A stretch of DNA of 64,000 nucleotides from a virus. Below, piece after piece: positions 4,395 through 55,560 of the stretch. Location: the IMG/VR virus record IMGVR_UViG_3300033146_001382, positions 32,001 to 96,000 of that record; one strand, written 5' to 3'. Positions within the stretch are counted from its first letter, which is position 1. Each line of letters begins with the position of its first letter. A program made the translations under genes and the position numbers. Under the pieces are notes generated by a model that ran no database searches, was not told the origin of the DNA, and saw only the letters and a list, made by a program, of their open reading frames with translations.

Positions 4395-4421
4395 TCAGTA
4401 CAAAAATTATGGAGGGGACTA

Positions 4422-5549: not shown

Positions 5550-5573
5550 CTATTAGTATAAGGAGGAGTTAAT

Positions 5574-5999: not shown

Positions 6000-6102
6000 T
6001 TAATAAGTTAATAACAAATGGTTTTATTGAATTACCCAGGTTGGTAACCTAAAGTAACAAAAAATAACATGATTTTAATTATATAAGGAGGAAAACCTTA
6101 CT

Positions 6103-6825: not shown

Positions 6826-6843
6826 TAAGGAGGAAGAAAAGGT

Positions 6844-7473: not shown

Positions 7474-7540
7474 TAAAAAAGTTGGATTAATGTATTTTTA
7501 TAATACATCCAAAATTACTAAATATTAGGAGGAAGTATAA

Positions 7541-31200: not shown

Positions 31201-31216
31201 AAAGGTTTAATTATTT

Positions 31217-32224
31217 ATGTTATTAGAGGACTCTGAGGTTGAAAATCTAATTACTTGTATCTCTTCTGGGGTACATCTTAAAATTATTGATAATAAGTTA
31301 ATAGTATTTAAATTTCCTACGAATATAATTAAATTAGAGGCCGATGTCCGTTATGAAGATGAATATAAAAAAGCAATTGATAGTGGTTTACTAGATAGGT
31401 CCTCATTAGAAGAACTAATTAAAAAGCGAAATTTATTTACTAATGAGGATCAAAAGAAGTTAGATAGTTTAAAATCTAAGCTAGAAGCACAAAGAGTACT
31501 ACTAGCTAAGACTACCGTTGTAAAAGCAAATCAATCTAGAATTAAAGGTATAATTAATAAATTAACTTCGGATATAGCAGAAATAACTTTACAAAAGACT
31601 TCCAAGTTGATGATGTCAGCAGAAGTAAGGGCCAATGAAGAGAGGTCATTATTTTTATGCTGGAGATGCACTTTTATTAATGATAAATTAGTATGGGAAA
31701 CTTTTGAAGATTTTAAGCACTCTACTGATTTAGTATTTAGAGAGAATGTTTTAACTTATTTTTTAGATGTGAACGCCGGTTTACCGGCGGATAAATTAAG
31801 ATTCATAGCTCGCCATAATTTATGGCGAATTAGGTATGTAAATAGCCAGAAATTATCTGAAGCTTTATTTGGTGTACCTTCTGTAGAGTATACTACAGAT
31901 ATGCTAAGTTTAGCTTATTGGTCTAATTACTATGATAATATATACCAAATGATGGCTGAAGATAAACCAAGTGATTTAATCATAGAAGATGATGAGTCAT
32001 TAGATGCTTATATGAGAGCTTTTTATGAGGAAAGGACACGTGAGGACGCTGCAAGGCGAAGTAAAAGTAAGTCACCTGGTAAATTATCAGCATTTGATTC
32101 TGAGGAAGTGATAGTGACTGCTTCTAATGAATTGTATCAAGATATAGAGTATGACACCCCAAGAGAAGCTAAAAAGCTTAAAGAAAGAGCGGATATTAAA
32201 AAAAGGACAAAGAGGGCTGGATAG
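31217..32224 (+). CDS. Putative tail assembly chaperone 2
   Basis: Directly upstream of the TMP; its coiled-coil and CTEQ/CWRC-region layout resembles the previous gene; YDNIYQMMAEDKPSDLIIEDDESLDAYM is typical of pre-TMP genes in large phages. Confidence 0.5.
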   Translation: MLLEDSEVENLITCISSGVHLKIIDNKLIVFKFPTNIIKLEADVRYEDEYKKAIDSGLLDRSSLEELIKKRNLFTNEDQKKLDSLKSKLEAQRVLLAKTTVVKANQSRIKGIINKLTSDIAEITLQKTSKLMMSAEVRANEERSLFLCWRCTFINDKLVWETFEDFKHSTDLVFRENVLTYFLDVNAGLPADKLRFIARHNLWRIRYVNSQKLSEALFGVPSVEYTTDMLSLAYWSNYYDNIYQMMAEDKPSDLIIEDDESLDAYMRAFYEERTREDAARRSKSKSPGKLSAFDSEEVIVTASNELYQDIEYDTPREAKKLKERADIKKRTKRAG

Positions 32225-32289
32225 GTAATTAAGTAACTACTAAAGGTTTAAAGGGATTTCTTTCTCAAAAAAACTAGGAGGATACTAAC

Positions 32290-35200
32290 TTGGGAGAACA
32301 TATAGTAAGTCATGATATAAAAGACTCTAGAACATCAAGTAAAAGCGGAAATACACAAGGTGTTTCTGTTGTAGAATTATCTAAAACGGATAAAGCGAGT
32401 CAAAAGAAACTTAATGACGGTATAAAAGAAATTAGGTCTATTATTAAGAAACAGGCCAATGACACCGTAACTTCAAAATTATTAAGTTTAATAGAGAAAT
32501 TGATTAGTGCCACTAATCAAGGATCTAAAATAAGTAGTTCTGAATTAAAAACACTATTAAATTCTATTGTTAAGAATCAGTTTAAAGGGGGACAAGGTTC
32601 CCAGACTAAAGCTACATCTACAGCTTCTGGTGCTTTAAAGATAGACACTACTTCTATTATAAAACTTCTTACAGATAATACTAATTCAATAACTAGTGCA
32701 GTTATAAAAGCTCTAGAATCTAAGGGTATTTCTATAGATGATGCTTCTATAAAACAATTTCATAATACTATGACGTCTACTGTTAAAGATATTATACCCG
32801 CTAAATTATATTCTATAATAGGTGAACTTAATTCTACATTAGATGGAGTAGTTAAGTCCAATCAGGTAGTTGTTCAAGCCTTTAAGTCTATGAAGAAATT
32901 ACGTGCTAGTGGTGGTGAGTTAGGTGTGAGTGAAGTAATACCATTCATGAGAAATCTTGAGAAAGGATTTGTAGAAGTTAAGTCCTTAGTGTCCAAAGTA
33001 AATGGGCTTAGTTCTAGTATATCAGCTATTCCTAAAGAACTTAAAGGGGCTATGGATGGTATTAAAGATGAACTTTCTAAAATGAAAAAAAGAACCCAAA
33101 ATAGAACATATAGCGTAATTAAAGAGGTTTCAGATAGTCCAGCAAGTGCTACACAGGCTGTGGTTAAACAAGTTGCTAAGGAGTTAAGTAAGGTAGGAGA
33201 AAAAGCATCTGACCCTCAAATTAAGAAATTGATCACTAAAATAGATAAATTTTCAGGTTCTTTGGATGATTTTCCTAAATTTATAGATGCCTTAGATAAT
33301 TTTGCTAAGGCTGTGACTAATGCTAAAAGTTTAGATCCAAAAACTATTCAAAATATTTTGGCTCCTTTACAGCAAGTTTCAAAATTTGCTCCAAAGGGGC
33401 TAAAAGACGATGTATTAAGTAGTAAGCCATATAAACTTCTAATGTCTCAAATGAATAAGCTTATAGAAGTAACTAAACAAATAACTATTAAGTTTAATGT
33501 AAAAACTAATAATTTAGACAAACAAATAGATAAGGTTATTACTAAAAAAGAACGTTCTGTAGATATTACTTTAAAATCTAAGAACTCTGATACTGTTGTT
33601 AAAGAGTTAGAAGATATTTCTAAACCTAGAGAAGTTATAATTACACCTGTCATAGCTACTAAAAAAGTAGTACAATCTAGTGTTACACCTTCTAGGGCAA
33701 ATTCAAATAAAAATGTGCCTCAAAATGTATTACAGGCTAATAAAAGACAATTAGCCTGCAAAGAAAAATCAAATATATATAGTCCTGACGAAGTTAAACA
33801 ATGGTCTAATACACTGAATAGTAAAGTGGATGTATTAATAGGATCTTTAACTAAAGCAGCTAATAGCAGAGGCGCAGCAATTAATGATGCAGATTTTGTT
33901 CTACCTCCTGTAGTGGAAAGTTCAATAATTAAATTGATAGCTATCATAGATGGTATATCTAGTAGAAGAGAGAATCCTTCTGAACTTAGAAAATATATGG
34001 ATAATTTATCTGCTAATTCACGGTATACCCCCTGCATCTCCACTCAGTCAAAACGGGACATTAAAGAGGTTTATGATGTATTACACTCTGTAACTACTGA
34101 CGCTTTTAGTGACATAGTAAAGGCTTCTGAAGAGGTAGTTAAAAATTTTGAGAAACTTAAAAAATTTCCAGATCCTGTTACAAATGTAACTAAAGATACT
34201 AAACTTAGTGTTGCTAAGACTACTGAACCAGTTAAATCAATTCAACAAACTAAACCAGTTAAGTCTACAGAACCTAGTAAACCTAGTAAACCTATAAAAA
34301 CTACTAAAACTACTAAATCTACTGAGTCTAATAAAGATGCTATAGACAGTACAGCAAAGCGTAATTTAGCTCAAACAAATGGTTCTGTTATACCACGTAA
34401 ACCAGGAGCAAATGAAAATCGAGGTATACCTAGTTCTACACAACAAGATATTTATCAATATACTGAACGTAATATAGATCCTGGAACCACTACATTTACT
34501 AGTGGAGCTGATATAGGGGTAGGTGAAAAGACTAAACAAATAGTACTTGATCATGTGGCAGATTTATCAAAATCTCTTTTAGATTTACAACAATATATAG
34601 TAACTACACTTGATGAAGAATTTACTAAAGTACGAGACAAGTCTAATAAGAAGAACTGGAAGATTGTAGGTAAGACTGATACAAATCCTATTTCAGACTA
34701 TTTTAAATTAACTGAAGGGTATAATAGGAAAAAGTCTGGGAAGCAATATAGTTTTAAAATAGCTAATATTAAAGCTTTACAAGGTAAAACTGGTAGTGAT
34801 TTAGAAGATCCGACTTCTTTAATAAATAAGTTTAAAGAAGATGTATCTAAAGAGTTATTAAACGCTAATAAATTTAATTTAGCAGAATCAGTGGGTAAGT
34901 GGCTTAAACGTTTCTCTACGTCTGATATATCTAACTGGAAGGGGTTAGGCACTGATACTTCACGTAGATTAGTAGGTATCAAAACTAAACATGATTTAGG
35001 TAAAGGAACTTCCCCTTCTAAGGGTATGGTTAAGGCACTAAAAGGACTTGGTAACGATAGATTAATAAATATATTTGAAAAGACTATTAGTGAGATAGAG
35101 TCAGACCGTAGGCTTAGCGAAGAGAAATTTAAAAGGTCTCCATTACTCAGAACTATTGCTATACCTGCGGCACGTTTGACTTCCACAGGTGCTACAACTT

Positions 35201-38200
35201 TTGATACTGCTTCAGGGAGTAAACGTGTAATACCTAAATTTGCGACATATAAGACTGGTTTTGAAAATATTTTTGAGTCCTTACAAAAAACTAAATCTCT
35301 AGATATAGACAAAAGCTATGCTTCAAAGATACGTAAATTAGGAATTAGGCCTTCTGGTTCTAATTTTGAAGAAGCTAATAAGTTATCTAAATCAATGTTA
35401 ATAGATTTATCTAGTGTTAAAGATGTAGTAGATCCTGACGGTAAAAAAAGCGTAAATGCTGATGATGTGAGAGCTGACTTAGCTAAAAAGTTAGAGGCCT
35501 CGGTAGTAATAAAAGCAGGAAAATTAGCTAAAGCTAAACATGTAAATAGCCCAGAAGATATATTAAGTAAAATAGATACTAGTATTTATACTGAATTTGC
35601 TAATGGTACTAAAACTATGGAAGAATTTATAGCTGCCACTAGTGCTGCTGGGGTAGCTGCTTATGATTTAGTTAAAGGGATGGAGAGCGTTGAATTTAAA
35701 AATATTTACCAAATAATTAAAAAGTTACTGGAAGGCTCAGCAGACACCAGCACTCCTTTAAGAACATTAGGTAATAATCCCGTTTATTCTAAAAATATTC
35801 GTGATTTTGATTCAACTATTGGAAAACTTATTGGTACAATACCTATCGCTGAGGCTGCTAGGCCTAGACGGTCAACGCACCAAGAAAAAATAATAAACTT
35901 GATGAGTATGAGTACGCCTATATATAGAGAAAAAGGTGCTATAGGTCTGCAAGGTACAGAGGCTGAAGGCCAAAAACAGTTTCTTAGAGACTTAAATCTG
36001 AATCTTGCTGAGTTTGTGTCCAATACAAAAATATTAACAACTGCAGGTATGGGCAAAGATAGACTACCTTCAGATGTAAAAACTTTTTCTAGTTTAGGTA
36101 TACCTGATGGACAGGCTGGTACTATTTTAGAGTATAGGAAAGATTTTAGACATGAAGATTCAAAGTATTTAGCACCTCTTAATGCTACTAATGTAAAGCT
36201 GTATTCAGATTCATTAGCTGAGTTGTCTCCAGCAGGTGCTCAGTTTACACAGTTAGGTAGAAATACTGCTAATGTTAATAATGCTTTAGCATATAGAAGT
36301 GGAGGTGTCGGAACTGATTTTCCTAGTTTACGTTCCAATAGAGAGTCAGAGTTAATTGCTGGGGGAAGGTATGGTACTCAAGGATATGGCTTTAATGTTA
36401 CAGCTGAATTACGTAATACACCTAATACGTTCGAAGATCAAATAGTTGTATCAGGTAAATTAGCTGATGTCCTTACATCCATAACTAAAACTATAATGCA
36501 GCCAGATAAACTAGGTAGATTAGCTCTAATAGGGAGTGATGGACAAATAGCTGATACACCAGAAGGCTCTGTTAGTGATATTGTACCACAACAATTAGTA
36601 AGTGTAATTGAACAGGCTAATAGGGTATTTCAAGATGTATTAGGAATAAAACAAGAGTATAAAGGACGTGCTGAGGATGCACTAATAAAAGAGGTTACAA
36701 GCGTATTAACTACTGTAAGAGGAAAGGATGTACAGGTTCAATCAGCTAAATTAGCGGAAGTATTTTTTAATTACTATGGTAGGAAATTTACTACTAGATA
36801 TGGCTCTAAAGGTGTATCTATAACGGCTCAAGGGGGAAAAGAAGAATTAACTGGGAAGCAGCTCAATGATTTATTTGCAAATAAGAAAGTAAAAGTATTA
36901 AACCGAGAAGAGCGAGCTACTGCTGGCTTAGGAACAGCTGCACTACCTAAGAGTATGGGCCAGCTTGTGCAAGAAATATATAAAGAATACGCACAAGAGT
37001 TAGAACTTTCAAAGTCAGATTTAAAGCTTTCAAGTCAAGCACTTGTAAATAGTGGTAATAAATTTATGTTAAGTATGTTCTCTGATGCCTCTTATGGGGT
37101 TGTGTCTGATGAATTAGATCTTACAGAGCAAAATAGTTTATTTGAGGAAACAAAAAAAGCCCTAGCTAAATTAGATTTAGATTTAGCTAAGGATATTAAA
37201 GGTATAGAGGGATTAAAAGAATTTTATTCTAATATGTCTGGGGCGCAGTTGTACACTGAAAAACCTATAGACATTAGAATTAGTTCACATGGTATTGCTA
37301 AACGTGGGCTTCAAGGTGAGAACATCGAAGCCATTATGAATAATGTTATTAATTCTGGTGAAGAAGAACATACTTCTTTAGTAACTAAATTCTCACCTAC
37401 TGCATATAGGCATTTGTTAGGTACATCTACTGATACCTCTGGCAAGTTCCCAAGTTTAAATGAGTTGAGTAAGGCTCTAGGTTTTGAGAGTCAGGCAAAA
37501 GGTAAAGACAGGGCTACAGTTGTAGAAGATATGATGAAGCTACTTAAATCTAGGCATATTAAAGGTTCTTCTGAGGAACTAACAACACAAGCTAATAAGT
37601 TGGCAGATTTAGAAATAAATTCTAATTTTTATAGTAGTATACGGGATGAGTTTGGTGAAAGTAGAAAAAGTTTGGTGGGCTCAAAATTTGTAGAACTAAT
37701 AGAAGAGCCTCATGCAAATCCAGCATGGAGTGAGACTGATATAAAGAAGCAGGTAGCAGGCCAACGTTTAAATATACCTGCATTTGGGGCTTATGCTACA
37801 GTATTTGGAGAGCAATCAAAGTTTATAAAGCAGTTAACTTCGGATGTACCATTAGAGGCTAAAAAACATTGGGAGTATTTAAAAGCCCTTCAAGTGTTAA
37901 ATACTGACAGTTCAGATATGGTAGATAGCCTTATGGCATCTGCACAGGTAGTAGATGTGTCAGATTTACGTAGTTTTACTAAGTCTACAGGTAAATTTAT
38001 ACCAGCATCACAGATGGTTAATATTGATTCAATGTCAGAAGAGGAAGCAGGTAGGGTGATGAATAACTCCATCTTAGACACTGCTAAATATCCTGGCCCG
38101 ATGAATTTACAAATTCCAAATACTAAAGACCCATCTAAACGTGAGTCATTTTACGTCCCTGGGGCTCTTGCTAGAGTTACTTATCCAGAACCTAATATAG

Positions 38201-47200: not shown

Positions 47201-50200
47201 AGAAATTTTTTGACCAGGTGTCTACTGATACTTTGTTACAATCTAATAAGGGTTTTGATATTACTAATAGAACTTTTGGTGAACCTAAGTATAAAGAAAA
47301 TCAGTCAAAAGATTTTATAAAGAAATACTATGATCCATTACAAGAGTACAACTCACTTAAATCAAGGCTAGGTGGGGAGGAGTCAACTCCGAAGGATGGG
47401 GATCGTTTGGGCAGTACTGCTAAAAGGTTTAAAGAGCTACAGGATATACTTAAAAATAACTCTGTTGCATTTCAATATAAAGCTGCAATAGAAGATTTAT
47501 CGAAAACACTTTATGCTGGGGAGCGGGCCATACGTAAAAATATTGAGGCAGAGAAGTCTAGACAGACTATAGACAAAGAGACGTCTGGATTCCTACAGGG
47601 TAAGACTAAAGGGATTAGTTCCCTTAATTTAGGTGTTAGGGATTATAAAGACTTAAATCCACAGCAAAAGGCCTCAGTAAAATTCAAAAGTTATGATAGT
47701 GTAGCTAAAAGTATATTAGTACAAGAGACAAATTTAGAGGGGTTACTTAATAACTATAAAGAGTTAGCCAACACATATGCAGATGTAAAGGAGATAAAGT
47801 TAGTATCTAAGGCATTCGGTGCAGTAATGCAGCCAAAAAGACATACAGAGTTATTATCCGCTATGGATAAAGTAGGTGGGGATAAAGGTACTGCTCAGTT
47901 ATATTTAAAGATGTCAGAGTTAAAATCCCCATTAGATGACATTAATATTAATACAGCTAAAACAGTTGATTTGCTAGATAAAGATAGTGCTAAAGTTACT
48001 AAGGCTAAAAATATAGTAAATTTAAATTTAGAAGAGGCTAATAAAAAGAAATTACGTGGTGAGAGGCTGAATACCTTTAAAACCGAGTTTTCACCTGGAG
48101 TAGTCATTATTAAAAATTTAGATATGTTATTAACTAAAAGAGATTCAGCTGCTAAAGTTGGGGACAAAGCTACTGTAAAAATGTTAGATTCTTATTTGAC
48201 TAAGTCATATGGTAAGCTCATAAAAACGTTTGGTGTAGCAAATACAGTTAAATTAGCTAAAGAACTTTATTATAAGGATGAGACTAGGTCACGTACGTCA
48301 AGGGTTTTAAGTTTAGGTCTCCACGGGTTGGGTACAGACCCTACTAGGTTGACACAGGTGATAGAATCAAAAAAACTTTCTGACGCTGCAAGTGTTGGTA
48401 ATAAATTAACTAAATTATTTTCTAAAGATCATCCTTGGAAGTCCTATATAGATAAAAGATTTACTAACTATACACCTAAAAAGACATCAGAGGCTATGAA
48501 TTTAGAATCTACTTATTCAAAGAAAGCTAAGTCTCCTTGGTTTGCGCCAAAAACTTTTGAAAAGGCACTATTGGTGGGTAATATAGTTACGGCATTTAAA
48601 GGAGCCTCACTTAAAGAGAAAAGAGACACTGTATTAGATAATATAGTTAAATTACAAAAAAGAAAGTCTGCACTATCTACTAATGACGAAACTACTAAAT
48701 CTAGAATTGATGAAGAAATAACTACTAATAAGTCACTTTTAAAAAGGGATTTAGATCCTAAAATTTATTTAAATAATATTCTAAAATCAACTGCTAGAGC
48801 TGCGTTTGTGGCTTATGAGGGTGCTGACACTTTTAAAGTGTCAGCAACCAATAAAGAAAATCTAGCAGTTACTGCTGGTGGCATTTTTATGTTGATGAAG
48901 GGGTTAGAGGGAAAGATAGGAAAAGAAAATATGCCAGAGTATTTTAAGAAATTCTCTAAAAAAGTAGGCCCAGCTTTTACAGAAGCAGCAACATCAGGGG
49001 ATTTTTCTAAAGTTACATCCTTAGGCTCTGACACAAAATCGTTTTTGGGTGAATTTACAGGATCTATGAAAGAGCAGTTTAAGGAATTTAAAGATGGTAG
49101 TAAGTCATCCGGCACAGTTAAAGATGATAGGAGTGATTCTGAAAAATTAAGGGAGTTGTCTAAATTAAAAAAGTCAGAGCAGGCGTTAGCCGATCTTAAA
49201 AAGCAACTATCTGCTGGTAATACAGGGGCACTAAGATCTATTGAAGCAGCACTTTATGCTTTTGGTGGTGTAGCTACATTAGGTTGGAAAGCTTCTAAAG
49301 GTGAAACAGCTGCTAAAATTAAAGATGATAAAAAGTTAGCTGAGGCACAATCAAAAGCTATGCTAGAATATACAATTAAAAATGCATCGGAGGTAGATAA
49401 TTATATACTTAATAATGAAAAATCAAAGAAAGAGAAAAAATCAAATATAGCTGCTAAGCCTGCCGGAAAGCCAGATGACATTATTATGGATACCAATAAA
49501 AATTTTATTGATATTGTAGAAACACTAAAGGCTTCTGGAGGCAGTTATCTAGAGGTAATTAAAAAACTACAAGATGTACTAGGAAATGATAAGTCATTTG
49601 CAAATCTTATAGTAGATGTTACTAGGATTCAATCCTCCTTAGAGAACTTTAGAGGTGAACTTATAAAGACATTCAGTACTTTTGATGATAAGAGAATACT
49701 AGCGCCTATTAGGTCTTTAAATGGTAAATTGACTGGGTTTGGTGGTGATATACAACTACCGGTTAGTGAAAGAGAAATGTCCCCACAACAAAGATTTTAT
49801 GCTGGTGGATCAAAAGAGTTACAGAGTATCTTTACACTAATGTCAAAAGCTGCCATGGTACAAGAAACTAATTTAAGAGCTATTGGTTCTGTAAGATCTG
49901 AAATTAGTACTATTACTCAAAATCTTTCTAAAAGTACTGAATCCGGAGCTTCTGAAAAAGATATAGTTTATTGGGAAGAAGAGTTATTACGACTTAATGC
50001 TATATTAAATAAATTAAAGCAAGATACTGGTAAACTTAATGAACAAACACAGACATTAAGTACTACTATGCGTGCAGCTAATAAATATGCTAATGCTATT
50101 TATAAATTAAATGATGCATTAGAAGACATAACGGTAGATCACATTGTTTCAGGTTTAACAGGTTTAAAGACTTATTTTAAGTCGTTTAATAAATTAATGG

Positions 50201-53200
50201 GAGGGTCAGATTCATTAGCAGTACAGCCTATAACTCCAGAGCAACAAAGAATGGGGACTAAAGTAGGGGTACCATTAGAATTTAATATATCTACTAATAA
50301 GGATATAGAGAAGGCACAATTACGTACTGAACTTAAGAACGCTTCTGATACTAAATCTAAAGCGGCCGCTCAACGTAAAATAAATGATTTAGAAGAAAAG
50401 TATAGACGATTGGAGTTGGAGCAGTCACAGAAAGAAGAGAATTCACGATTAACTTCCAATATGCGGCCATATACAGATTTTTACAAAGAGATAACTCGTC
50501 TACAGGTCAGTGGTGGTTTAAATGACAAACAAATTAGTGACATAGAAGAAGTTAAAGTAATAATTAATAAAGCTATAGGTGGTGCTACTAAACCTATACC
50601 AATAGAAGATGCTATAAAACGATTAAAAACTAATGAAGATAGTATGGGTAACACTCAGTTTAAAATGGCTATGAATGAGTTACTTAAATTTAAGGAGACA
50701 GGCACTGAGTTTGTTTACCAGGGTGTCGCTGACTCAAATGAGCTTCAAGATGCTATAAATAGATTACGTATAGCATATGAAGATGAATTAAAGACTATTG
50801 CAGCTGATAATGGGGAAACTACTATATCTACCGCATTAAGAGATGAGGTAGCAGATCCTATAGTTGGAGTTATAAATTTATCTAATAAATTATTAGAAGA
50901 GTTAGTTACTGAGTTTGTGGGGCAAACAGCTACGGATATGGTATTAAAGGAATTTGAGAAAAAACAAGTAGTGCCTAGTTATCTTAAGGCTGTTTCATCT
51001 TCTAAAGAGTTAAGTACATCACCTAAGAGTAAAGTATTTAGAAATAGTTTTACTACCCCAGCTGATGAATTAAAACCATTACCTTCTGTCATAGATACTG
51101 ATTTTAATAAAGTATTTAATGATAAAAAATTCTTGGCTCAATCACCTGTAGAGCGCACCGAGTATAATAATAGAGGGGCAACTCCTAATATGTTTGAAAA
51201 AATTGAAGGGTTTATTAATCCTAATAAGACGATTAAGACATATGAAAAGCCTTCTATTATGGAGAATGTGTATATTCCATCTAGTACGCAAGATAATATA
51301 GAAACTAATGAAATGGCTAATGGTATTCTAATTTCAAAATCACAGGATATTTCTACAATGTCTGGAAACCCTCAAAAAATTATTACTGATCAAGAGACCA
51401 AAGACATTCTAAAAGAGATAGCTGTAAACAGTAAGGCAGTAGACAAAGAACAACCAAAAGAAGCCCTAAAAAAAGCTATAGGTGGTAGAATATTTGGTGA
51501 AGGTGGGCCAAGAGAAGATAAAGTCCCGGCTTATTTAAGTCCTGGGGAATTTGTTATACGTGCTGCTTCTGCACAGCAGATAGGCTATCAGAATCTGGAT
51601 GTAATGAATAAGAAGGGTAGAGTACCATTAAAGTTTAAAGATGGAGGACTAACACCAGAACTTATAGGTAAGGCTCATACATACTTTACTGACCCAGATG
51701 CTGAAGCGCCTATACCTACATTTGATTCAAAGAATGAAGAAAAATTTAATTCTAAGTTAACCAAAAAGTACCTTGATTTATATAGATCATTATTACCTGA
51801 AGAAGCTAGAGAAAATGAGTCTATTAAGTTGGCATCTACTTTTCGTGGTTTTTATAATACTTTAATAGATTTAAATGAGGCTGAGGTTTTTTCAGACGAC
51901 GAACTATTTGCTGTAGATGCTTCTATGATGTTAAATAAGTTTAAAGAGATGCAAAGTAATAAAGGTATATTAGGCTTTATGCAACGTTCATTAAGTAAGA
52001 AGACTGGGGCTACAGCAGGTGCAAGAGCACTCACAGGTTTGGATAAAGTTGATTTGCTAAAGGAAATAAATACTTATGCTGACGGTGGGAAAGCTATTAG
52101 TACTATTACAGGTAAACCTATTCCTACTGCTGAAGAAAAAGAAGTAGGTATGTCAAAGATGCGTGAGGCCTTAGGATTCGTAGCGTCAGTTGCTCATCCT
52201 TATACTTCTATCCCTACCTCTATTTATGGTATGTACCAGGGATTTAAAGAAAGTGGTTTTAATATGAAGTCTATGGTAGAAGGGGCCGGTATTCTAGAGA
52301 TAATGAATTTTATACCACAAGCTAAAAAACTAGGTAAAGTTGGGAAATTTTTAAGTAAAGGAGTAGGTAAATATGTAGATAACGCTGGAGATATTAATGA
52401 TTATTTTAATATTACTGGTAAATTAACTAAAGCCCCAGAAACGTATAAAGTGACAAAACCTATACATAGGGACTTTGGGCCATTAAGTGCATCATTTAAA
52501 GATGGCGGTTCAGTACTTTCTGAAGAAAAACAAAATGAACACGATGCTTTATATTCAAGGTTTCCAAGTAATACTGAATCTAATTATAACTCAAAAAGTA
52601 CTGTTAATTTAAATAAAGTGAGAAGTTTTATAGGTGACTCTACAGGAGTAGCAGAAGTTGACGCTTCATTATTTAATAAGAGGCTTAATACTTCTATTGG
52701 AAGTCGTAGATCTGTAGCTAGACTACTTAAAGATTCTTATATGGCCCCAGATAAAAATAATGAAGTAATGAATACTGATGTTTTAAAGTTAACAGCTAAA
52801 TCTAATAGTAAGCTAATGAATAATAAAGTACGAAATTTTATAGGTGATTCTACTGGTGCAGTAGAGGTAGATGATACTTTATTTAATCGTAGGCTTAATT
52901 CTTCGGATGACTTACAGTCAGTAGCTGATTTACTTAAAAATAATTATAATAAAATTGATACTAATAATGAAAAATTAAATACTGATGTTTTAAAACTTAC
53001 TGAAGAACCAACTAAACCTTTAAATATTAAGAACTTACATGCTAAGTATCCTAAATCAAATAGCAGATTATTAGCTAATAATAAGGAAGCTACTACATCA
53101 TATCATATCCCTATGGGGGATGGAAGTAGTGAGATATCTACTAATGATTGGCCTCCATCCCAAAATCTACTTGACTTAATTAGAAATAACTGGAGTTCGT

Positions 53201-55560
53201 CTGCAAAAGTTAATAATAAGGAAGCTACTACATCATATTATACTCCTACTAGTACTGGTTATAGTCAAGTATCTAAAGAGTACTGGCCCTTTATGAATAA
53301 CAAAGAGCAGATTGAGAAGTTTAATGCGGGTGGTCAACCTAAGAGCTCTTCTACTGAGCAAGAAAAATATAATACTGGTACTATTAATTCTTTACTTAAG
53401 GATGATGAGAAAACCAAGGGGTTAGTAGATGAGGATCAGAATCATATTAAAAAATGGGGGGCAACTACTGCTAAAAAAGTTGGGGATATATTTACTACAG
53501 AGGCTCAAAATTCTGCTGATTTTAGGGGTTTAGATGCTATGTCTAGAAAACAAGATTTTGAGAGGGCCTTAACTGAACAAGGACATGGTAGATCTAGTGT
53601 TTATGAGATATTAAAAAATAATAGTTATATATCTAGAGAGTTACAAAGAAGTTATTTACATACTCCAGATAAACAACGAGGGCTGAATATCTTAAGAGAT
53701 AAGAATTCTGGTGTTACTGGTGGGAGGGTTGCTATTGAGTCATATCGTACACCTGATGAATCTTATAGACCAAAAGGTAAAGATAGTATTAAAACTACTG
53801 TTCATGACCCCTCTGCTTTATACCCTGGCAACGAAACTACAAGGTACCGTAAGTACAAACGTGATATTGATATTAGGGGTAAACAACTTACTAATAAGAT
53901 GGCTACTTTGGACTCAGAGAGTGATTCATATTCTAAGTTGGCCAAGGAATATAAACAAGTTCAAAAAAATTCAAAAGCAGCAGCGACTATATTAGAGGTA
54001 TTAGGAGAAGGAGGTAATATTTATGATGATGCGAGATTACAGCATAGAGTAAAAGATTTTTTACCTGCCTCTGAAACTTGGGGAGTTGGTAAAAATGCAT
54101 TTAAGTTTCAACCTTCTCCTGAAAAAAGGTATACTTCTGATCTAGAAGATGTAAAAAATGCAGCACTTAATGCTAGACAATATCTTGAAGAATCAGTTGG
54201 TGGTGCTAAAGTATCATCTATAAAAACTCTTATGCCTTTATCCAAAAAGTTAGCTAATAAAGGTACTGTTTTACAGGACTACGCTATGCAAGGGGCATCT
54301 AAAAGTGAAGCAGATAAGATTATAGATGAATTTAGCCTTGAAGAGATAAAAAAGTTTCTAGACTCTGGAGATCATAGTTCAGTGTCAAGGGATACTTTAA
54401 GGAAATTAAAACAGAGTATTAATGCGCAGGAGTATAATGTGGGCGGGGTTGCTACTAGATCTATGCCAGTTAAACATTTTGGCGGTGTTATTACTCAGAC
54501 TGGCCCAGTTTTTGCTGAAAAGGGTGAGTACATTATACCTAAAGGGTATAAAGATGGTACTTCTGGGGTGGGGGCACTACCCTCTATGCCAGTAGCTAAA
54601 TCTTTGACTTCTAGTTCTACGGTACTTGATTTGACTGCCCTGTTATCTGATTTAACTAATATAAGACTTAAAGTAGATCCATCAGCATTGAATGGTATAA
54701 GTCTACCAGTAAAAGACACAGTACTAGAAGTAGATAAAACTCCTATTCCTATAGATTCTAGTAGTTTAGATGGGGTAGTACTAAATGTGGATCAGACTCC
54801 AATTACTTTAAATTCTAGTAGTTTAAATGATCTTACTTTATCTGTAGATAAAACTCCTATTCCTATAGATTCTAGTAGTTTAGATGGGGTAGTATTAGAA
54901 GTAGATAAAACTTCTATTCCCATAGATTCTAGTAGTTTAGATGGGGTAGTATTAGAAGTAGATAAAACACCTATATTTGTTGATTCTAGTAGTTTAGATG
55001 GGGTAGTACTAAATGTAGACCAAACACCTATAATAATTGATACGAGCGGGTTATTAGAAAAATTAGCGAGTTTAACATTATCTGTGGATAAAACCCCATT
55101 ACCAATTGATTCTGGTAGTTTGAGCGAATTTAAACTCAACATAGGGGATGCACCTGAAAAATTAGCTGCTGCTATTAATAATAGTTTAAATGCAGCTGTT
55201 GTAAATATCAAGGTTGATTCCTCTGAGGTTGGAGGCTCCGTAGGTGCGGAGAAGTTTAATCAGTTAGCACAAACTGTATCTGATGTAAATGATAAGTTAT
55301 TAAATAGTTCAGTAATTATAGAAGATAGAATTACATTATTAGAGGGTGGTATAGATGTAGTAATAGATAATAGTGTGGAACGTAAACTGGCATCTAAATT
55401 AGTAGGTATAAATGAAGACGTAGCTACTGCTATTAGGGGGGTAGCGTCTTTAACTAATAATGTAACCACTCAAATAGATAGTATAAGAAGAGAGTCAACT
55501 AATGTAAAATATCTAGCACATTTAGCTTTAAATGCTAGAGGTACAGGAAATATAACTTAA
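32290..55560 (+). CDS. Giant tape measure protein fused to a two-barrel (beta+beta'-type) RNA polymerase and a PD-(D/E)xK nuclease (7,756 aa)
   Basis: TTG start with AGGAGG RBS. Ordered RNAP motifs at aa ~1320-2750 (FED, RYGSKG, DIRISSHGIAKR, GQR, GKTG, RFP, NLDFDGD). Nuclease at aa ~3320-3430. TP901-type TMP core from aa ~3978. TMP C-terminal GG...DKVPAYLSPGEFVI motif. Position between chaperones and tail-tip genes. Confidence 0.92.
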   Translation: MGEHIVSHDIKDSRTSSKSGNTQGVSVVELSKTDKASQKKLNDGIKEIRSIIKKQANDTVTSKLLSLIEKLISATNQGSKISSSELKTLLNSIVKNQFKGGQGSQTKATSTASGALKIDTTSIIKLLTDNTNSITSAVIKALESKGISIDDASIKQFHNTMTSTVKDIIPAKLYSIIGELNSTLDGVVKSNQVVVQAFKSMKKLRASGGELGVSEVIPFMRNLEKGFVEVKSLVSKVNGLSSSISAIPKELKGAMDGIKDELSKMKKRTQNRTYSVIKEVSDSPASATQAVVKQVAKELSKVGEKASDPQIKKLITKIDKFSGSLDDFPKFIDALDNFAKAVTNAKSLDPKTIQNILAPLQQVSKFAPKGLKDDVLSSKPYKLLMSQMNKLIEVTKQITIKFNVKTNNLDKQIDKVITKKERSVDITLKSKNSDTVVKELEDISKPREVIITPVIATKKVVQSSVTPSRANSNKNVPQNVLQANKRQLACKEKSNIYSPDEVKQWSNTLNSKVDVLIGSLTKAANSRGAAINDADFVLPPVVESSIIKLIAIIDGISSRRENPSELRKYMDNLSANSRYTPCISTQSKRDIKEVYDVLHSVTTDAFSDIVKASEEVVKNFEKLKKFPDPVTNVTKDTKLSVAKTTEPVKSIQQTKPVKSTEPSKPSKPIKTTKTTKSTESNKDAIDSTAKRNLAQTNGSVIPRKPGANENRGIPSSTQQDIYQYTERNIDPGTTTFTSGADIGVGEKTKQIVLDHVADLSKSLLDLQQYIVTTLDEEFTKVRDKSNKKNWKIVGKTDTNPISDYFKLTEGYNRKKSGKQYSFKIANIKALQGKTGSDLEDPTSLINKFKEDVSKELLNANKFNLAESVGKWLKRFSTSDISNWKGLGTDTSRRLVGIKTKHDLGKGTSPSKGMVKALKGLGNDRLINIFEKTISEIESDRRLSEEKFKRSPLLRTIAIPAARLTSTGATTFDTASGSKRVIPKFATYKTGFENIFESLQKTKSLDIDKSYASKIRKLGIRPSGSNFEEANKLSKSMLIDLSSVKDVVDPDGKKSVNADDVRADLAKKLEASVVIKAGKLAKAKHVNSPEDILSKIDTSIYTEFANGTKTMEEFIAATSAAGVAAYDLVKGMESVEFKNIYQIIKKLLEGSADTSTPLRTLGNNPVYSKNIRDFDSTIGKLIGTIPIAEAARPRRSTHQEKIINLMSMSTPIYREKGAIGLQGTEAEGQKQFLRDLNLNLAEFVSNTKILTTAGMGKDRLPSDVKTFSSLGIPDGQAGTILEYRKDFRHEDSKYLAPLNATNVKLYSDSLAELSPAGAQFTQLGRNTANVNNALAYRSGGVGTDFPSLRSNRESELIAGGRYGTQGYGFNVTAELRNTPNTFEDQIVVSGKLADVLTSITKTIMQPDKLGRLALIGSDGQIADTPEGSVSDIVPQQLVSVIEQANRVFQDVLGIKQEYKGRAEDALIKEVTSVLTTVRGKDVQVQSAKLAEVFFNYYGRKFTTRYGSKGVSITAQGGKEELTGKQLNDLFANKKVKVLNREERATAGLGTAALPKSMGQLVQEIYKEYAQELELSKSDLKLSSQALVNSGNKFMLSMFSDASYGVVSDELDLTEQNSLFEETKKALAKLDLDLAKDIKGIEGLKEFYSNMSGAQLYTEKPIDIRISSHGIAKRGLQGENIEAIMNNVINSGEEEHTSLVTKFSPTAYRHLLGTSTDTSGKFPSLNELSKALGFESQAKGKDRATVVEDMMKLLKSRHIKGSSEELTTQANKLADLEINSNFYSSIRDEFGESRKSLVGSKFVELIEEPHANPAWSETDIKKQVAGQRLNIPAFGAYATVFGEQSKFIKQLTSDVPLEAKKHWEYLKALQVLNTDSSDMVDSLMASAQVVDVSDLRSFTKSTGKFIPASQMVNIDSMSEEEAGRVMNNSILDTAKYPGPMNLQIPNTKDPSKRESFYVPGALARVTYPEPNIAGERGLDVVARRLQSIVNAANKVDSVKGKTGEDGSTKRWDTIARIKAKLNDYRSRVTEIVGPDPQTKNLSSNEVGQLEGILQKLLKVLDQAPADNRMLYSNQKYLSGSTRGEVVRDIYKTRGADQSQAKVYQTTINSAVDQLIGPDGAPNPKMPQFAQRYEPDANLLGAKDALGVTSLSNFALSLDVKPASGEDKLKDALKSLERAKIEYYNTLAKSVLGKTGSVQEFLFNRKLPAVMGKAINATVDKTKDLETFSKELLSISNSSGDIGVDLSSLSEAASTIDEIKISHAKNVEKSKAKGLPVLQQHEIGIPENYAAKLPTSFVKRYDINEGRVKELPKPIFEKSNLAKMLTYREEVKAAMPSTAPDMQTKMKAYLSSELSPYIESLRFPVTGVSSIQPYEAKLLKPNEDGTRQMAKHSLMVPGVPDFDTSKFDTIKVKVEAVIEGLVEDREAEYNKDTPDLSRVDKLTTTISSLDKALFDVLPKYTAAQQNLDFDGDQIQLHAAKKSLARQEITQHFKTITDYDSQKDTTAQALRSDFTYDALIPSTGNYTLAEQQLAFEKKFPSEEGFGFMTKPFLTKDLEYLKPAEQLDILSNYPGTEGAEVTPLTVLDNLLPELFRNAKQMSKIMETLEAVVPGVDDEGKSTYSKDLLTALSNMKSPDGKTNGTQVDVFKEGIKNKLYDTKMTNAINANFFKLNTGQDTEALNRQLKLFERNLGYGGGLIRQGAKYNPTENLAQRFPLDLKSMGNIIGEELHTMVNEFVRFGEQKGLDVKHAGSLPVATEMAQLISQGSSGVKKLIDKINTKGGSYGELADFKDANYKVLNHRLGAMSTEDLYTDATKIASGRGEPTAKLDSSSRDQLKEYIISSIGFEGFLYELSNQVIEGAQEGLKAAISTWSESKKQKEFKGMNEDNYVKSIIRKQLKGGGVNISGTAENPLMPLYKMRTSSASGYGQRKLHMDKYGDPEVPELDGIFEGDEAKAYVSKLKEAKAVAKNIQDALTDFSANKLGNRRGSYNMLLASDIDNIYNDQRIIQELVKSLEGKEDTIESSVADRLSGNSPMSNLAIEALSKPNNTVRKEFLEIKGRAVSVPSIGQESAAISNEEYITTASMLAERDLPMPVQGDTTNKEYAAILIEHEKAVDKLKDKYLADALVIAQTDTILKAAMSRAEEIGFVTRLLPEDARSYNDRRQRVTQAAQESANNANQSTNTNSNLGVDILQRSMPAGGAGTPEGSLVKFSGGPAVDVRIVAVAEGVGIFLGKTAGIAQTTEEQQPRFSISSELEEKIKKAENIVKDITGGLNNAKGDSFANKYRASGLKGGYGNRQISEIKKQMQGFQANEDILDSTSLLGTGIHAKLEGGYQSKGYATEKPVRYDSPEGEISGTVDAIKYENGKAKHIVDIKTTSALNYEDLHRGVARFQEKTGKKTPTLEEIKPYVGKALSSTKLDDVASQLNLYLRATNTNAKASAHFYSREDPDLEPIKLDQFFDADRLKADVTAIGQARKEIKREGGTFAPTASYEEAKIIAKETKPVTPERIEELISIATEYYNSVKQGQHTQKNMPASGGLRDNELYTIGIRAREYQSQSKAFDDMVRATPVVEGKETYNVHQNLTTLHERARITQQKRGVETSGPQFNKFNEEVQSKITEASKKGPAGAEFSALITHLKDTSQIDGSKINAAWKAYRVAVGDYFVKEMAEARRQLTNDSANDDNIVPRFGEYSKVVKNFQRFVKQGIGKKTDIYTANSQYFNPESARGAGVYMDTDDLIKKSSKPLGEDTKLISLFKRITSLEENEVPIPRDAIRDVLEDLMDMDHALISLYTDAELVAKIGPKIKNGWRFDRLKGGLSKMRAALELQLNQPVKELYDEDQIAYLKQVLKELKSLETVYIDLDLDTDSFENTLGEYKFPTLIPVPKQLPRNQQLASHYKNVEGLKSHYRTPEAQGGAKTGDSFVYPIKTYGPSGKLMDNQRFVISKWGETINSAGDSIPVLKSRLDDLNKSLVDGNRTFSVAIERVVKWGAAATLVYGGMSYIKDAVNHMADVETAMARLRMVMNPLTTDFDALQKSALGFAQQYGVETTDVLGSMKVFAQQGLSQGEVQDRTQTSTLAANVTTLSATDATEALTASMKVFRSEGENSMRFLDSWSQVEARAAITAGDLADAIKKSASAGKNAGFTFDELNGMIAAIGSVTRKSGKEIGTSLRFIFRRISADKAPKALKNVGVSTTTDKGELRSGFAVLGDLASEWDNLAQAQKLSIAQAIGGTRQYNQVLVLMDNWDQVVKSLGDSLDAKGSAERRNLQLMKTYTKQLEQTKAVFSALKIEVGKVVLPSFKVAMSGIRGLIEVVNNVPESIKLAGAGIVLFVGYITKGASALNYIINMVDRTKLSFAALKDDFAKGLGQGLFESFGKGSPELDSNLFGLSSLGDSGTRNINDMTSSMGKLAFGVLAAGQAFNKFSGIVVKDTGGASKVVAKYLKTAGKLVSAVGTGALLAPIPGPVDDIIGGATEFAGEALKGTAGTFDFLGDTMGKGAQAWIENFASSNSSAVKSVMPLMATLGGLAAMAPIVSTAFKNLTQTAKDYKDEQLNRLEVDAKEIDSIQGLITSYKDLQSQKQRIAKLSTPEEQAKNIKQGDYKSPVFEEIDSLKTTRKFNASLSGLDSNMVDGFDEFGRVIINNKGNLKEYLEELKRAKTISLALSKIKITSRFTEDLTKTDGNQEWKYQVQQLAKEFPLIGDMLAKGISVGPKKALEVLQTELTQLLDAKAENPMSTAFDQDIKTALTAHSKILKTFASEYSEISKTLSGISISGTTLSDVTNLFNSGDALATFDLQAAYEDKYNIASVKGTVSGKDIAASKILSTQAGGNSSYVEASRLLTENNLFSAGRLPRAPDATGNISVENNDFVTLNKDFAKAHNIATEQAILIIDKNNHTFLQYIDSISGAPKTKKISKWDLARAARGFFPAEAILRKTKADITKLNTFISGASAGLIGISDKGLKKRQFSLGEKFFDQVSTDTLLQSNKGFDITNRTFGEPKYKENQSKDFIKKYYDPLQEYNSLKSRLGGEESTPKDGDRLGSTAKRFKELQDILKNNSVAFQYKAAIEDLSKTLYAGERAIRKNIEAEKSRQTIDKETSGFLQGKTKGISSLNLGVRDYKDLNPQQKASVKFKSYDSVAKSILVQETNLEGLLNNYKELANTYADVKEIKLVSKAFGAVMQPKRHTELLSAMDKVGGDKGTAQLYLKMSELKSPLDDININTAKTVDLLDKDSAKVTKAKNIVNLNLEEANKKKLRGERLNTFKTEFSPGVVIIKNLDMLLTKRDSAAKVGDKATVKMLDSYLTKSYGKLIKTFGVANTVKLAKELYYKDETRSRTSRVLSLGLHGLGTDPTRLTQVIESKKLSDAASVGNKLTKLFSKDHPWKSYIDKRFTNYTPKKTSEAMNLESTYSKKAKSPWFAPKTFEKALLVGNIVTAFKGASLKEKRDTVLDNIVKLQKRKSALSTNDETTKSRIDEEITTNKSLLKRDLDPKIYLNNILKSTARAAFVAYEGADTFKVSATNKENLAVTAGGIFMLMKGLEGKIGKENMPEYFKKFSKKVGPAFTEAATSGDFSKVTSLGSDTKSFLGEFTGSMKEQFKEFKDGSKSSGTVKDDRSDSEKLRELSKLKKSEQALADLKKQLSAGNTGALRSIEAALYAFGGVATLGWKASKGETAAKIKDDKKLAEAQSKAMLEYTIKNASEVDNYILNNEKSKKEKKSNIAAKPAGKPDDIIMDTNKNFIDIVETLKASGGSYLEVIKKLQDVLGNDKSFANLIVDVTRIQSSLENFRGELIKTFSTFDDKRILAPIRSLNGKLTGFGGDIQLPVSEREMSPQQRFYAGGSKELQSIFTLMSKAAMVQETNLRAIGSVRSEISTITQNLSKSTESGASEKDIVYWEEELLRLNAILNKLKQDTGKLNEQTQTLSTTMRAANKYANAIYKLNDALEDITVDHIVSGLTGLKTYFKSFNKLMGGSDSLAVQPITPEQQRMGTKVGVPLEFNISTNKDIEKAQLRTELKNASDTKSKAAAQRKINDLEEKYRRLELEQSQKEENSRLTSNMRPYTDFYKEITRLQVSGGLNDKQISDIEEVKVIINKAIGGATKPIPIEDAIKRLKTNEDSMGNTQFKMAMNELLKFKETGTEFVYQGVADSNELQDAINRLRIAYEDELKTIAADNGETTISTALRDEVADPIVGVINLSNKLLEELVTEFVGQTATDMVLKEFEKKQVVPSYLKAVSSSKELSTSPKSKVFRNSFTTPADELKPLPSVIDTDFNKVFNDKKFLAQSPVERTEYNNRGATPNMFEKIEGFINPNKTIKTYEKPSIMENVYIPSSTQDNIETNEMANGILISKSQDISTMSGNPQKIITDQETKDILKEIAVNSKAVDKEQPKEALKKAIGGRIFGEGGPREDKVPAYLSPGEFVIRAASAQQIGYQNLDVMNKKGRVPLKFKDGGLTPELIGKAHTYFTDPDAEAPIPTFDSKNEEKFNSKLTKKYLDLYRSLLPEEARENESIKLASTFRGFYNTLIDLNEAEVFSDDELFAVDASMMLNKFKEMQSNKGILGFMQRSLSKKTGATAGARALTGLDKVDLLKEINTYADGGKAISTITGKPIPTAEEKEVGMSKMREALGFVASVAHPYTSIPTSIYGMYQGFKESGFNMKSMVEGAGILEIMNFIPQAKKLGKVGKFLSKGVGKYVDNAGDINDYFNITGKLTKAPETYKVTKPIHRDFGPLSASFKDGGSVLSEEKQNEHDALYSRFPSNTESNYNSKSTVNLNKVRSFIGDSTGVAEVDASLFNKRLNTSIGSRRSVARLLKDSYMAPDKNNEVMNTDVLKLTAKSNSKLMNNKVRNFIGDSTGAVEVDDTLFNRRLNSSDDLQSVADLLKNNYNKIDTNNEKLNTDVLKLTEEPTKPLNIKNLHAKYPKSNSRLLANNKEATTSYHIPMGDGSSEISTNDWPPSQNLLDLIRNNWSSSAKVNNKEATTSYYTPTSTGYSQVSKEYWPFMNNKEQIEKFNAGGQPKSSSTEQEKYNTGTINSLLKDDEKTKGLVDEDQNHIKKWGATTAKKVGDIFTTEAQNSADFRGLDAMSRKQDFERALTEQGHGRSSVYEILKNNSYISRELQRSYLHTPDKQRGLNILRDKNSGVTGGRVAIESYRTPDESYRPKGKDSIKTTVHDPSALYPGNETTRYRKYKRDIDIRGKQLTNKMATLDSESDSYSKLAKEYKQVQKNSKAAATILEVLGEGGNIYDDARLQHRVKDFLPASETWGVGKNAFKFQPSPEKRYTSDLEDVKNAALNARQYLEESVGGAKVSSIKTLMPLSKKLANKGTVLQDYAMQGASKSEADKIIDEFSLEEIKKFLDSGDHSSVSRDTLRKLKQSINAQEYNVGGVATRSMPVKHFGGVITQTGPVFAEKGEYIIPKGYKDGTSGVGALPSMPVAKSLTSSSTVLDLTALLSDLTNIRLKVDPSALNGISLPVKDTVLEVDKTPIPIDSSSLDGVVLNVDQTPITLNSSSLNDLTLSVDKTPIPIDSSSLDGVVLEVDKTSIPIDSSSLDGVVLEVDKTPIFVDSSSLDGVVLNVDQTPIIIDTSGLLEKLASLTLSVDKTPLPIDSGSLSEFKLNIGDAPEKLAAAINNSLNAAVVNIKVDSSEVGGSVGAEKFNQLAQTVSDVNDKLLNSSVIIEDRITLLEGGIDVVIDNSVERKLASKLVGINEDVATAIRGVASLTNNVTTQIDSIRRESTNVKYLAHLALNARGTGNIT
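36230..37830 (+). other. RNA polymerase beta-like region within the giant protein
   Basis: QLGRNT (~Rpb2 QSPRNT); GFNVTAELRNTPNTFEDQIVVS (~[23 protein letters not shown]); GRKFTTRYGSKGV (~GDKMAGRHGNKGV); KPIDIRISSHGIAKRGLQGENIE (~[23 protein letters not shown]); VAGQRLN (~FGGQRFG). All occur in canonical order. Confidence 0.9.
38140..40540 (+). other. RNA polymerase beta'-like region within the giant protein
   Basis: FYVPGALAR...LDVVARRLQSIVN (~LPVLPPDLR...LNDLYRRVIN); LAKSVLGKTGSVQEFLFNRKL (~[21 protein letters not shown]); LQQHEIGIP (~LRLHQCGLP); LRFPVTGVSSIQPY (~NRAPTLHRLGIQAF); NLDFDGDQIQLH (~NADFDGDQMAVH); candidate bridge helix at 40288-40353 and trigger loop GEQKGLDVKHAG at 40498-40533. 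Confidence 0.9.
42135..42720 (+). other. PD-(D/E)xK (RecB/Cas4-like) nuclease domain within the giant protein
   Basis: YRASGL, GTGIHAKLE, YATEKPV, ISGTVDAI, IVDIKT and SQLNLY are the full RecB-family motif set. Confidence 0.85.
44221..45400 (+). other. TP901-family tape measure core domain
   Basis: DVETAMARLRMVM...LQKSALGFAQQYG...FAQQGLS...TLAANV...DATEALTASMKVF...LADAIKKSASAGKNAGFTFDELNGMIAAIGSVTRKSGKEIGTSLRFIF. Confidence 0.9.
52612..53001 (+). repeat. Tandem 210-bp (70-aa) in-frame duplication
   Basis: NKVRSFIGDSTGVAEVD...NTDVLKLT at 52612 and NKVRNFIGDSTGAVEVD...NTDVLKLT at 52822. Confidence 0.9.
53076..53300 (+). repeat. 135-bp (45-aa) in-frame duplication
   Basis: taataataaggaagctactacatcatat occurs exactly at 53076 and 53211 (NNKEATTSY...WP twice). 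Confidence 0.85.
54727..55140 (+). repeat. 57-bp (19-aa) tandem repeats, about 7 copies
   Basis: [ESN]VD[KQ]TPIPIDSSSLDGVVL units; VD codons start at 54730, 54787, 54844, 54901, 54958 and 55015. Confidence 0.92.

Follow-up and report, generated by a model that had tools for sequence, protein, structure and literature searches.

A giant phage tape measure protein with a predicted two-barrel RNA polymerase and a predicted exonuclease ahead of its ruler core

Introduction

N4-like and crAss-like podophages inject a large polymerase-bearing virion protein (N4 vRNAP and phi14:2 gp66, respectively) that starts early transcription. A virion RNA polymerase fused to the tape measure protein has been described for Thermus phage P23-45, where it is called gp96, as well as for P74-26, G20c and TSP4 (Chaban et al. 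2024, PMC10770324). In gp96 an active, virion-borne polymerase occupies the first 1,200 residues; it transcribes pre-early genes, among them the gene for a second polymerase, and the authors propose that the polymerase remains linked to the tape measure pore (PMC10770324). Here we analyze a giant protein, encoded by a single open reading frame (ORF) of 23.3 kb and 7,756 residues at positions 32290-55560 (+) of a 64,000-nucleotide stretch of viral DNA, hereafter the window (positions 32,001 to 96,000 of IMG/VR virus record IMGVR_UViG_3300033146_001382). The frame encodes a tape measure protein in which an RNA polymerase and a nuclease are predicted to be embedded (32290..55560, +), and the same collinear architecture is present in 61 homologues.

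An earlier sequence-only reading of the window had described this protein as a tape measure with a polymerase and a nuclease as its payload, and its author knew of no described tape measure with both enzymes. That view has to be divided in two. The fusion of a tape measure with a polymerase is already published (gp96, PMC10770324), and the suggestion that a tape measure can carry a virion RNA polymerase into the cell accordingly has experimental precedent. The addition of a nuclease is unmatched in the literature searched: our searches for nuclease- or polymerase-bearing tape measures returned the P23-45 gp96 paper only (PMC10770324).

Results

The fused architecture is conserved

The uninterrupted frame starts at a TTG codon, 8 nucleotides behind an AGGAGG ribosome-binding site (32276..32281, +), and the proposed order of two polymerase halves, nuclease, TP901 core and repeat-containing C-terminus was confirmed by motifs and folds at the expected places. 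A search with residues 1300-3500 recovered 61 other clusters of 4,271-7,998 residues, at 68% down to 22% identity, all of them with the tape measure domain PF10145 and stemming from ENA, JGI, Logan and NCBI assemblies with contigs up to 325 kb. Segment-by-segment BLAST gave an identical domain order in all 61 giant homologues, which is far beyond chance, and 43 IMG/VR loci have the same long open frames. The question raised by the earlier reading, whether the architecture is that of a conserved family, is thus answered in the affirmative. We conclude that all three modules exist as parts of one chain, and that they are conserved and subject to purifying selection.

Searching for shorter homologues yielded three matches. 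In an IMG/VR relative (L031:6314-25029) the giant gene appears as four ORFs, with in-frame TAG codons at 11834-11836 and 12851-12853 and, near 20400, a poly-A run in which the frame shifts. Homology resumes immediately past each TAG; these codons could stem from sequencing errors or indicate that the phage recodes amber. In an ENA relative (L051:10001-26783) the 2,461-residue protein P0063 is interrupted by a frameshift in a run of six A, six residues past DFDGDQ, and homology resumes in the next frame. A homopolymer error of long-read sequencing, or else decay into a pseudogene, seems a better account of this break than a functional split. Separate genes in the split relatives are excluded by the frameshifts and in-frame TAG codons with continuing homology (P0063, L031), and proteins of 6,400-8,000 residues from more than 60 independent assemblies are collinear, so that neither an assembly chimera nor separately encoded domains, the two outcomes that would have spoken against the earlier description, was found.

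Tape measure/polymerase fusions of 4,000-5,600 residues form a further group (P0062, P0111, P0127, P0144, P0147, P0152-P0155, P0160 and P0170). Their first third contains NLDFDGD, their PF10145-like core shows 39-49% identity, and they are nuclease-free. The fusion of polymerase and tape measure consequently reaches well past the family of 7,000-residue proteins.

The polymerase module

Three kinds of evidence, namely motifs, fold and a sequence bridge to stand-alone proteins, lead us to identify residues 1341-2930 as a predicted single-chain RNA polymerase of the cell-type, two-barrel kind, beta-like half first and beta-prime-like half second. The beta-like half, with the second catalytic barrel, covers residues 1341-1870 (36310..37899, +) and is recognized by motifs that are invariant in the family. 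These are FED at 1381-1383 (nucleotides 36430-36438), GRKFTTRYGSKG at 1497-1508 (36778-36813) and KR at 1671-1672; R1498-K1499 and K1507-G1508 sit inside the second of them, for which the Escherichia coli beta counterpart is GDKMAGRHGNKG. The beta-prime-like half covers residues 1872-2930 (37903..41079, +), as judged from motifs, VIA-align and hhalign, and contains RFP at 2359-2361 and the putative magnesium-binding loop NLDFDGD at 2463-2469 (39676-39696). In alignments of 26-31 relatives with a mean column identity of 25-41%, FED, the R-K..K-G residues, K1671-R1672, R2359-x-P2361 and L-D-F-D-G-D (2464-2469) are invariant or nearly so, and 60 of the 61 homologues retain either DFDGD or a DxD[GAS]D variant. 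Pfam RNA_pol_Rpb1_2 matches residues 2431-2487 weakly and under its cut-off (E 2e-4). Beyond the active-site barrel, conserved motifs at about 2667-2671 and at 2731-2748 resemble a bridge helix and a trigger loop, and we take the beta-prime-like half to contain candidates for both. The motif evidence points to a beta-type barrel equipped with both catalytic lysines and with the ED pair, and, in combination with the structural model, to a beta-prime-type barrel with the DxDxD metal-binding loop.

The sequence bridge was found with a profile of residues 1341-2540, which recovered 149 of 1.84 billion representative proteins, mostly giants or fragments. Among the 149 are stand-alone proteins of approximately 1,000-1,180 residues with the motif NLDFDGDV[IL]Y (P0149, P0161 and their kin). 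P0149 and its kin match Pfam RNA_pol_Rpb2_6 above cut-off (E 3.7e-10 for P0149) and RNA_pol_Rpb1_2 just under it, as well as solved bacterial beta subunits. When the profile of the fused family (A6) was compared with P0149 by hhalign, the two aligned over 396 columns (Prob 98.75, E 1.5e-16), pairing TFEDQ with NYEDQ, GRKFTTRYGSKGV with GFKITNRHGNKGV, and the K-R strand.

An AlphaFold model of residues 1341-2540 (1,200 residues) has a mean predicted local distance difference test score (pLDDT) of 72 and a predicted template modeling score (pTM) of 0.48; pLDDT is about 80-90 over model residues 500-1200 and poor over the first 210. Foldseek with the whole 1,200-residue model returned nothing at E <=0.001, polymerase chains being merely enriched among the weak rows. 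Alignment of the Foldseek top candidates with VIA-align gave RNA polymerase largest subunits in all 50 matches listed, with Z of about 12 over model residues 532-1177, and placed E. coli beta-prime 346-504 on model residues 862-1175 at 20-21% identity. A Foldseek-independent scan of 48,161 representative chains had Pol I, Pol II and archaeal largest subunits in its top four places (Z 11.5-12.2, 256-271 residues aligned). Lower rows held polymerases of Vaccinia and African swine fever virus, Pol III/IV/V, Mycobacterium tuberculosis beta-prime, QDE-1, AR9 and designed double-psi beta-barrel proteins (Z 9.1 for the last), with helical-bundle noise interspersed. Both the N-terminal clamp region of beta-prime/Rpb1 and the isolated archaeal clamp 3qqc (Z 9.1) can be aligned to model residues 532-860, a similarity to be read with the pTM of 0.48 of this predicted model in mind.

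The nuclease module

Residues 3270-3486 (42097..42747, +) are predicted, from conserved residues and from a structural model, to form a PD-(D/E)xK exonuclease domain of the lambda-exonuclease/Cas4/RecB type. The residues G3322..H3326, E3341, D3358, D3372-I-K3374-T and SQLNLY (3423-3428), the last with the QxxxY motif Q3424..Y3428, are invariant in 22 aligned relatives. PHROG 1706 (Cas4-like) matches the domain in 14 of these 22 members (best E 3e-9, and E 1.8e-5 for the window's own domain) and Pfam PDDEXK_1 in six, and hhalign puts the D and DxK residues onto the catalytic D1067 and D1080-x-K1082 of RecB. A model of residues 3270-3980 has a pLDDT of 82, rising to about 90 within the nuclease. 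Its fold matches Cas4 SSO0001 (4ic1, Z 12.4, 162/206 residues), LHK-Exo (Z 11.8), a phage-related exonuclease (3k93, Z 11.5) and lambda exonuclease (Z 10.8), and also RecE, MGME1, EXO5, Dna2 and AdnAB; all of these lie on model residues 1-217 and cover the whole domain with its alpha-beta-beta-beta-alpha-beta core. The four-cysteine Fe-S cluster of Cas4 is absent, the domain being cysteine-free; within that clade it would therefore rank with the lambda-exonuclease/RecB-like members and not with Cas4 proteins that bind Fe-S.

Of 95 giant proteins, 70 were matched by a local hidden Markov model of the nuclease. When the polymerase region was used to build a tree, rooted at its midpoint, the domain occurred in most of the 7,000-residue group but was missing from the shorter outgroup and from at least seven tips scattered over the tree. 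Polymerase and ruler core are 1,087 residues apart without the nuclease versus 1,479 with it, a difference of about 390 residues. The simplest reading, which hinges on the rooting, is that the nuclease was gained once at the base of the 7,000-residue group and then repeatedly and cleanly lost.

The ruler core and the remaining regions

The tape measure core is a TP901-family domain at residues 4034-4232 (44389..44985, +), where Pfam PF10145 (PhageMin_Tail) is matched over its full length (1-201) at E 3.3e-28 and 99.4 bits against a cut-off of 33.2. It is the most conserved segment of the protein, with 52-87% identity among relatives in segment BLAST, and 12 PHROG tape measure families match the protein from about residue 3959 onward. 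The domain thus scores above the Pfam gathering score, and the gene lies after a tail tube gene and genes of chaperone size. Downstream of the core follow a Gly-rich region at 4300-4540 (45187..45909, +), with a hydrophobic, membrane-like segment at 4516-4538, and a long C-terminal ruler region of about 3,200 residues at 4541-7756 (45910..55557, +), assigned by PHROG tape measure matches and conserved motifs. The latter includes a conserved GGPREDKVPAYLSPGEFV module at residues 6398-6425, a related module at 7398-7417 and, close to the C-terminus, a tandem repeat of 57 nucleotides (19 residues) in 5.5 copies (54720..55031, +). At 1.5 Å per residue, a tail measured by residues 4034-7756 alone would be about 560 nm long, and one measured by the entire chain about 1,160 nm.

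Upstream of the core, a conserved and mainly helical region at 3490-3980 (42757..44229, +; alignment A7) gave weak helical fold matches only and no match in a PDB sequence search. Residues 2931-3269 (41080..42096, +) are a variable linker with a Gly-rich 'GG...V(P/R)...' module at about 3195-3235. The motif [FYM]x[DNAV]GG occurs seven times in the ORF versus 0.6 expected (residues 3195, 5836, 6449, 6596, 6736, 7011 and 7382), and longer 'GGP..D.VPA.LSPGEFV'-like modules are recurrent in the protein, one of them immediately preceding the nuclease. Judged from their sequence, these Gly-rich modules may be marks of domain borders.

The enzymes do not occupy the N-terminus, where the sequence-only reading had placed them: the polymerase is internal, behind approximately 1,340 residues. 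Residues 1-749 (32290..34536, +) are Lys/Ser/Thr-rich and poorly conserved (20-39% identity or BLAST-negative among relatives), with no Pfam or PHROG family above cut-off. A 9-nucleotide repeat, AACCTACTA, is present in 5.9 copies at window positions 34271-34323 and encodes a Lys/Pro/Thr-rich tract in this variable region. Residues 750-1340 (34537..36309, +; alignment A8) are conserved and gave no informative match in PDB sequences, Pfam, E. coli beta or the stand-alone polymerase P0149.

Composition is even along the ORF, with a GC content of 0.32-0.38 and uniform GC skew. Among the 7,756 residues there are two cysteines, both before residue 1000, and the polymerase consequently lacks zinc-binding cysteine clusters, just as the nuclease lacks an Fe-S cluster.

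Gene context and source record

The giant gene belongs to a late module on one strand, with terminase, portal, major head protein and tail tube genes upstream. The terminase large subunit (12-2033), the portal (2388-4394) and the major head protein (7541-8608) are encoded on the same strand as the giant gene, and genes for virion structural proteins lie between the major head protein and tail tube genes. The tail tube protein (530 residues; 28520..30112, +) was recognized in the ESM Atlas, where it matched Phage_tube_2 and Phi812 tail tube clusters by both feature and structure. Between it and the giant gene are two ORFs of 247 and 335 residues (30457..32224, +), whose position is kept in relatives; the order of tube gene, two small ORFs and giant gene is identical in L031 and L051. 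Family searches with these two ORFs gave no match, and from their position they are possible tail assembly chaperones. From the gene order in the module it follows that the giant gene occupies the tape measure slot.

The source record is a linear IMG/VR virus contig of 189,441 bp, approximately 72% complete by CheckV estimate, and derives from a large, probably jumbo, long-tailed phage. A sheath gene was not recognized among the neighbors, most of which are without a family match. No tRNA genes were found in the 189-kb record. Ahead of the window the same genome encodes a hybrid sensor kinase of 947 residues (L044:8716-11559) with a solute-binding domain, PAS, HisKA, HATPase and receiver, an unusual cargo for a phage. 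Past the window lies a second giant protein of 3,409 residues with Laminin_G_3 and F5/8 type C domains (L047:429-10658), followed by more large discoidin-domain proteins; it is probably a fiber or adhesin.

A second, stand-alone polymerase in some relatives

Two relatives, G003 (268,764 bp, 100% complete) and G001 (237,910 bp, 87% complete), encode a stand-alone polymerase of 1,109 or 1,180 residues (E 3e-174) in addition to the fused one. The gene is at G003:C1:44379-47375 (L054, minus strand) in the former and at G001:C1:113213-116335 (L055 and L058) in the latter. It is missing from two other near-complete relatives (89% and 97% complete).

Discussion

Taken together, we consider it likely that the giant protein is a tail tape measure which bears a two-barrel polymerase and an exonuclease ahead of its ruler core, is delivered through the tail and starts transcription of the phage genome. 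Tail assembly, ejection and host-independent transcription are proposed by analogy with P23-45 and on the basis of general tape measure biology. According to this proposal the giant protein would be built into the tail and would exit it at infection, whereupon the injected polymerase would transcribe the first phage genes during DNA entry, the host enzyme not being needed. Later on, transcription would pass to the host enzyme or, in phages that have one, to a stand-alone polymerase of their own. The nuclease would travel with the polymerase and, as a speculative guess, might act on DNA ends, either of the entering phage genome or of the host DNA. By this analogy the protein is probably a tail-delivered start-up kit for infection.

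The proposal should be viewed with some caution, since several observations weigh against it. PDB sequence searches with residues 1300-3600 and with the beta and beta-prime profiles did not find a polymerase, and Pfam RNA_pol_Rpb2_6 has no match in the window's own record. Direct comparison by hhalign gave a single match to E. coli beta, at the catalytic motif 1062-1076 (E 0.16), and a single match to E. coli beta-prime, at the catalytic motif 457-480 (E 0.0096), in both cases covering the motif only. The core of the beta-like barrel is poorly modeled, with a pLDDT of 30-47. In a set of 50,697 phage records, megablast of the ORF, tblastn of residues 1300-3600 and tblastn of P0149 were all empty, and in the window's own record (approximately 72% complete) neither a polymerase of the stand-alone or T7-like kind nor a sigma region 2 was found. 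The proposal also has no explanation for the way in which a tail would house, or let through, a folded polymerase of about 1,600 residues with an apparent clamp-like part. Finally, the idea of a combined payload of polymerase and nuclease on the tape measure stands insofar that both modules are real and fused, but the nuclease is dispensable, an accessory and not a core component, because it was lost at the scattered tips noted above and is missing in about one quarter of the giant relatives.

A bolder version of the preferred reading holds that a widespread lineage of large phages fused a cell-type single-chain polymerase and a lambda-exonuclease-like nuclease to a TP901-type ruler independently of the Thermus phages, and that the product is a tail-delivered 'resect and transcribe' machine in which the exonuclease, by processing host DNA or the end of the incoming genome, makes the template or promoter form that the injected polymerase uses. 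We would entertain this version only tentatively and rate it as rather unlikely.

The giant protein could alternatively be a processed polyprotein that is cut at assembly, with the polymerase and nuclease packaged free in the head or neck, as in N4-like and crAss-like phages, and with the C-terminal half serving as the ruler. Cleavage in the course of tail maturation is established for some tape measure proteins, and in our protein the ruler-type sequence starts only at about residue 3959, linker regions are variable, and short Gly-rich modules lie at domain borders (approximately 3195, 6398 and 7398). We nevertheless regard processing as unlikely. No cleavage site or dedicated protease was identified, and the fusion is kept in every intact relative, which selection for co-translation alone explains less easily. 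For P23-45 the authors' proposal is likewise that the polymerase stays attached to the tape measure pore (PMC10770324).

It is very improbable that the polymerase-like and nuclease-like domains are relics without catalytic activity that persist for their bulk, perhaps to serve as an anchor or plug in the part of the tail nearest the head. Such an origin would be in keeping with the extreme sequence divergence from all characterized polymerases and with the absence of zinc-binding cysteines in a protein that has only two cysteines. However, across relatives that share 25-35% identity the residues whose only role is catalysis, i.e. the Asp trio of DFDGD, the beta lysine pair, FED, and the D, DxK and QxxxY residues of the nuclease, are invariant or nearly so. 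That the giant ORF is an artefact, either an assembly chimera or adjacent genes read as one, can be dismissed with near certainty, for although some relatives look split (four ORFs in L031, and P0063 stopping just past DFDGD), the breaks are TAG codons or homopolymer frameshifts across which homology continues, the composition is uniform along the ORF, and the same collinear protein recurs in more than 60 independent ENA, JGI, Logan and NCBI assemblies.

Returning to tail delivery of an embedded polymerase as the preferred reading, its implications extend beyond the window. If the polymerase is delivered and active, injection of a polymerase on the tail ruler would be recurrent in large uncultured phages, beyond one thermophilic group. 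These phages would have arrived at the solution by way of another polymerase branch and another family of tape measures, and would provide a second, much larger system for studying the storage of folded enzymes in a tail and their passage through it, the coupling of the first transcription to DNA entry, and the contribution of a co-delivered exonuclease. Database labels for such genes are 'TP901 family tape measure protein' only, or the genes are unnamed, and the polymerase and nuclease are for that reason invisible in databases.

Comparison with known systems

Among described systems, gp96 of P23-45 is the relevant counterpart. Both are giant proteins in the tape measure slot that unite, in one chain, a ruler and a two-barrel polymerase whose metal site is DFDGD. 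P23-45, like some relatives of the window, has another two-barrel polymerase that stands alone, and the pair of fused and stand-alone enzymes in G003 and G001 parallels that of gp96 in the virion and gp64 outside it. In other respects the two differ. Their sequences show no similarity, whether the polymerases or the rulers are compared (hhalign Prob 0.4, BLASTP at chance level). The polymerase of gp96 is at the extreme N-terminus, with DFDGD at residue 779, whereas that of the window protein lies behind about 1,340 residues, with DFDGD at 2465. By Pfam, gp96 has Peptidase_M23 and no PF10145, and the window protein has PF10145 and no M23; gp96 is nuclease-free, in contrast to the window protein. 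Moreover, gp96 is reported to be clamp-less and to belong to the phage/QDE-1-type group, while the window protein has cell-type beta motifs (RYGSKG against RHGNKG), and its polymerase model appears to align with the N-terminal clamp region of beta-prime/Rpb1. The window family would, by analogy, work like gp96 but stands outside the gp96 family, and the two fusions may have independent origins or may have diverged past recognition.

Other known proteins resemble single modules. The stand-alone polymerases of the P0149/P0161 type, uncharacterized metagenomic proteins of approximately 1,000-1,180 residues, are homologous to the fused polymerase and share the order beta-like then beta-prime-like as well as NLDFDGD. 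They differ in being free proteins, encoded away from the tail module and beside replication and nucleotide-metabolism genes, and in having about 230 residues before the first barrel and neither ruler nor nuclease. Lambda exonuclease, RecE, Cas4 and RecB share with the nuclease the fold of the whole domain (Z 9.3-12.4) and the D...(D/E)xK and QxxxY residues, but the window nuclease is embedded in what is predicted to be a virion structural protein and is without the Fe-S cysteines of Cas4. The injected polymerases of the podophages are more distant: N4 vRNAP is T7-like and not two-barrel, and phi14:2 gp66 belongs to a QDE-1-like branch, is not part of a tape measure and was merely a weak Foldseek row here.

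In conclusion, experimental proof of the principle of a tail-delivered polymerase comes so far only from one unrelated, nuclease-free Thermus phage system. The fusion of a tape measure with a polymerase was already known from gp96; what is new relative to it is this lineage of giant proteins and the nuclease added to them, for which the literature searched offers no match.

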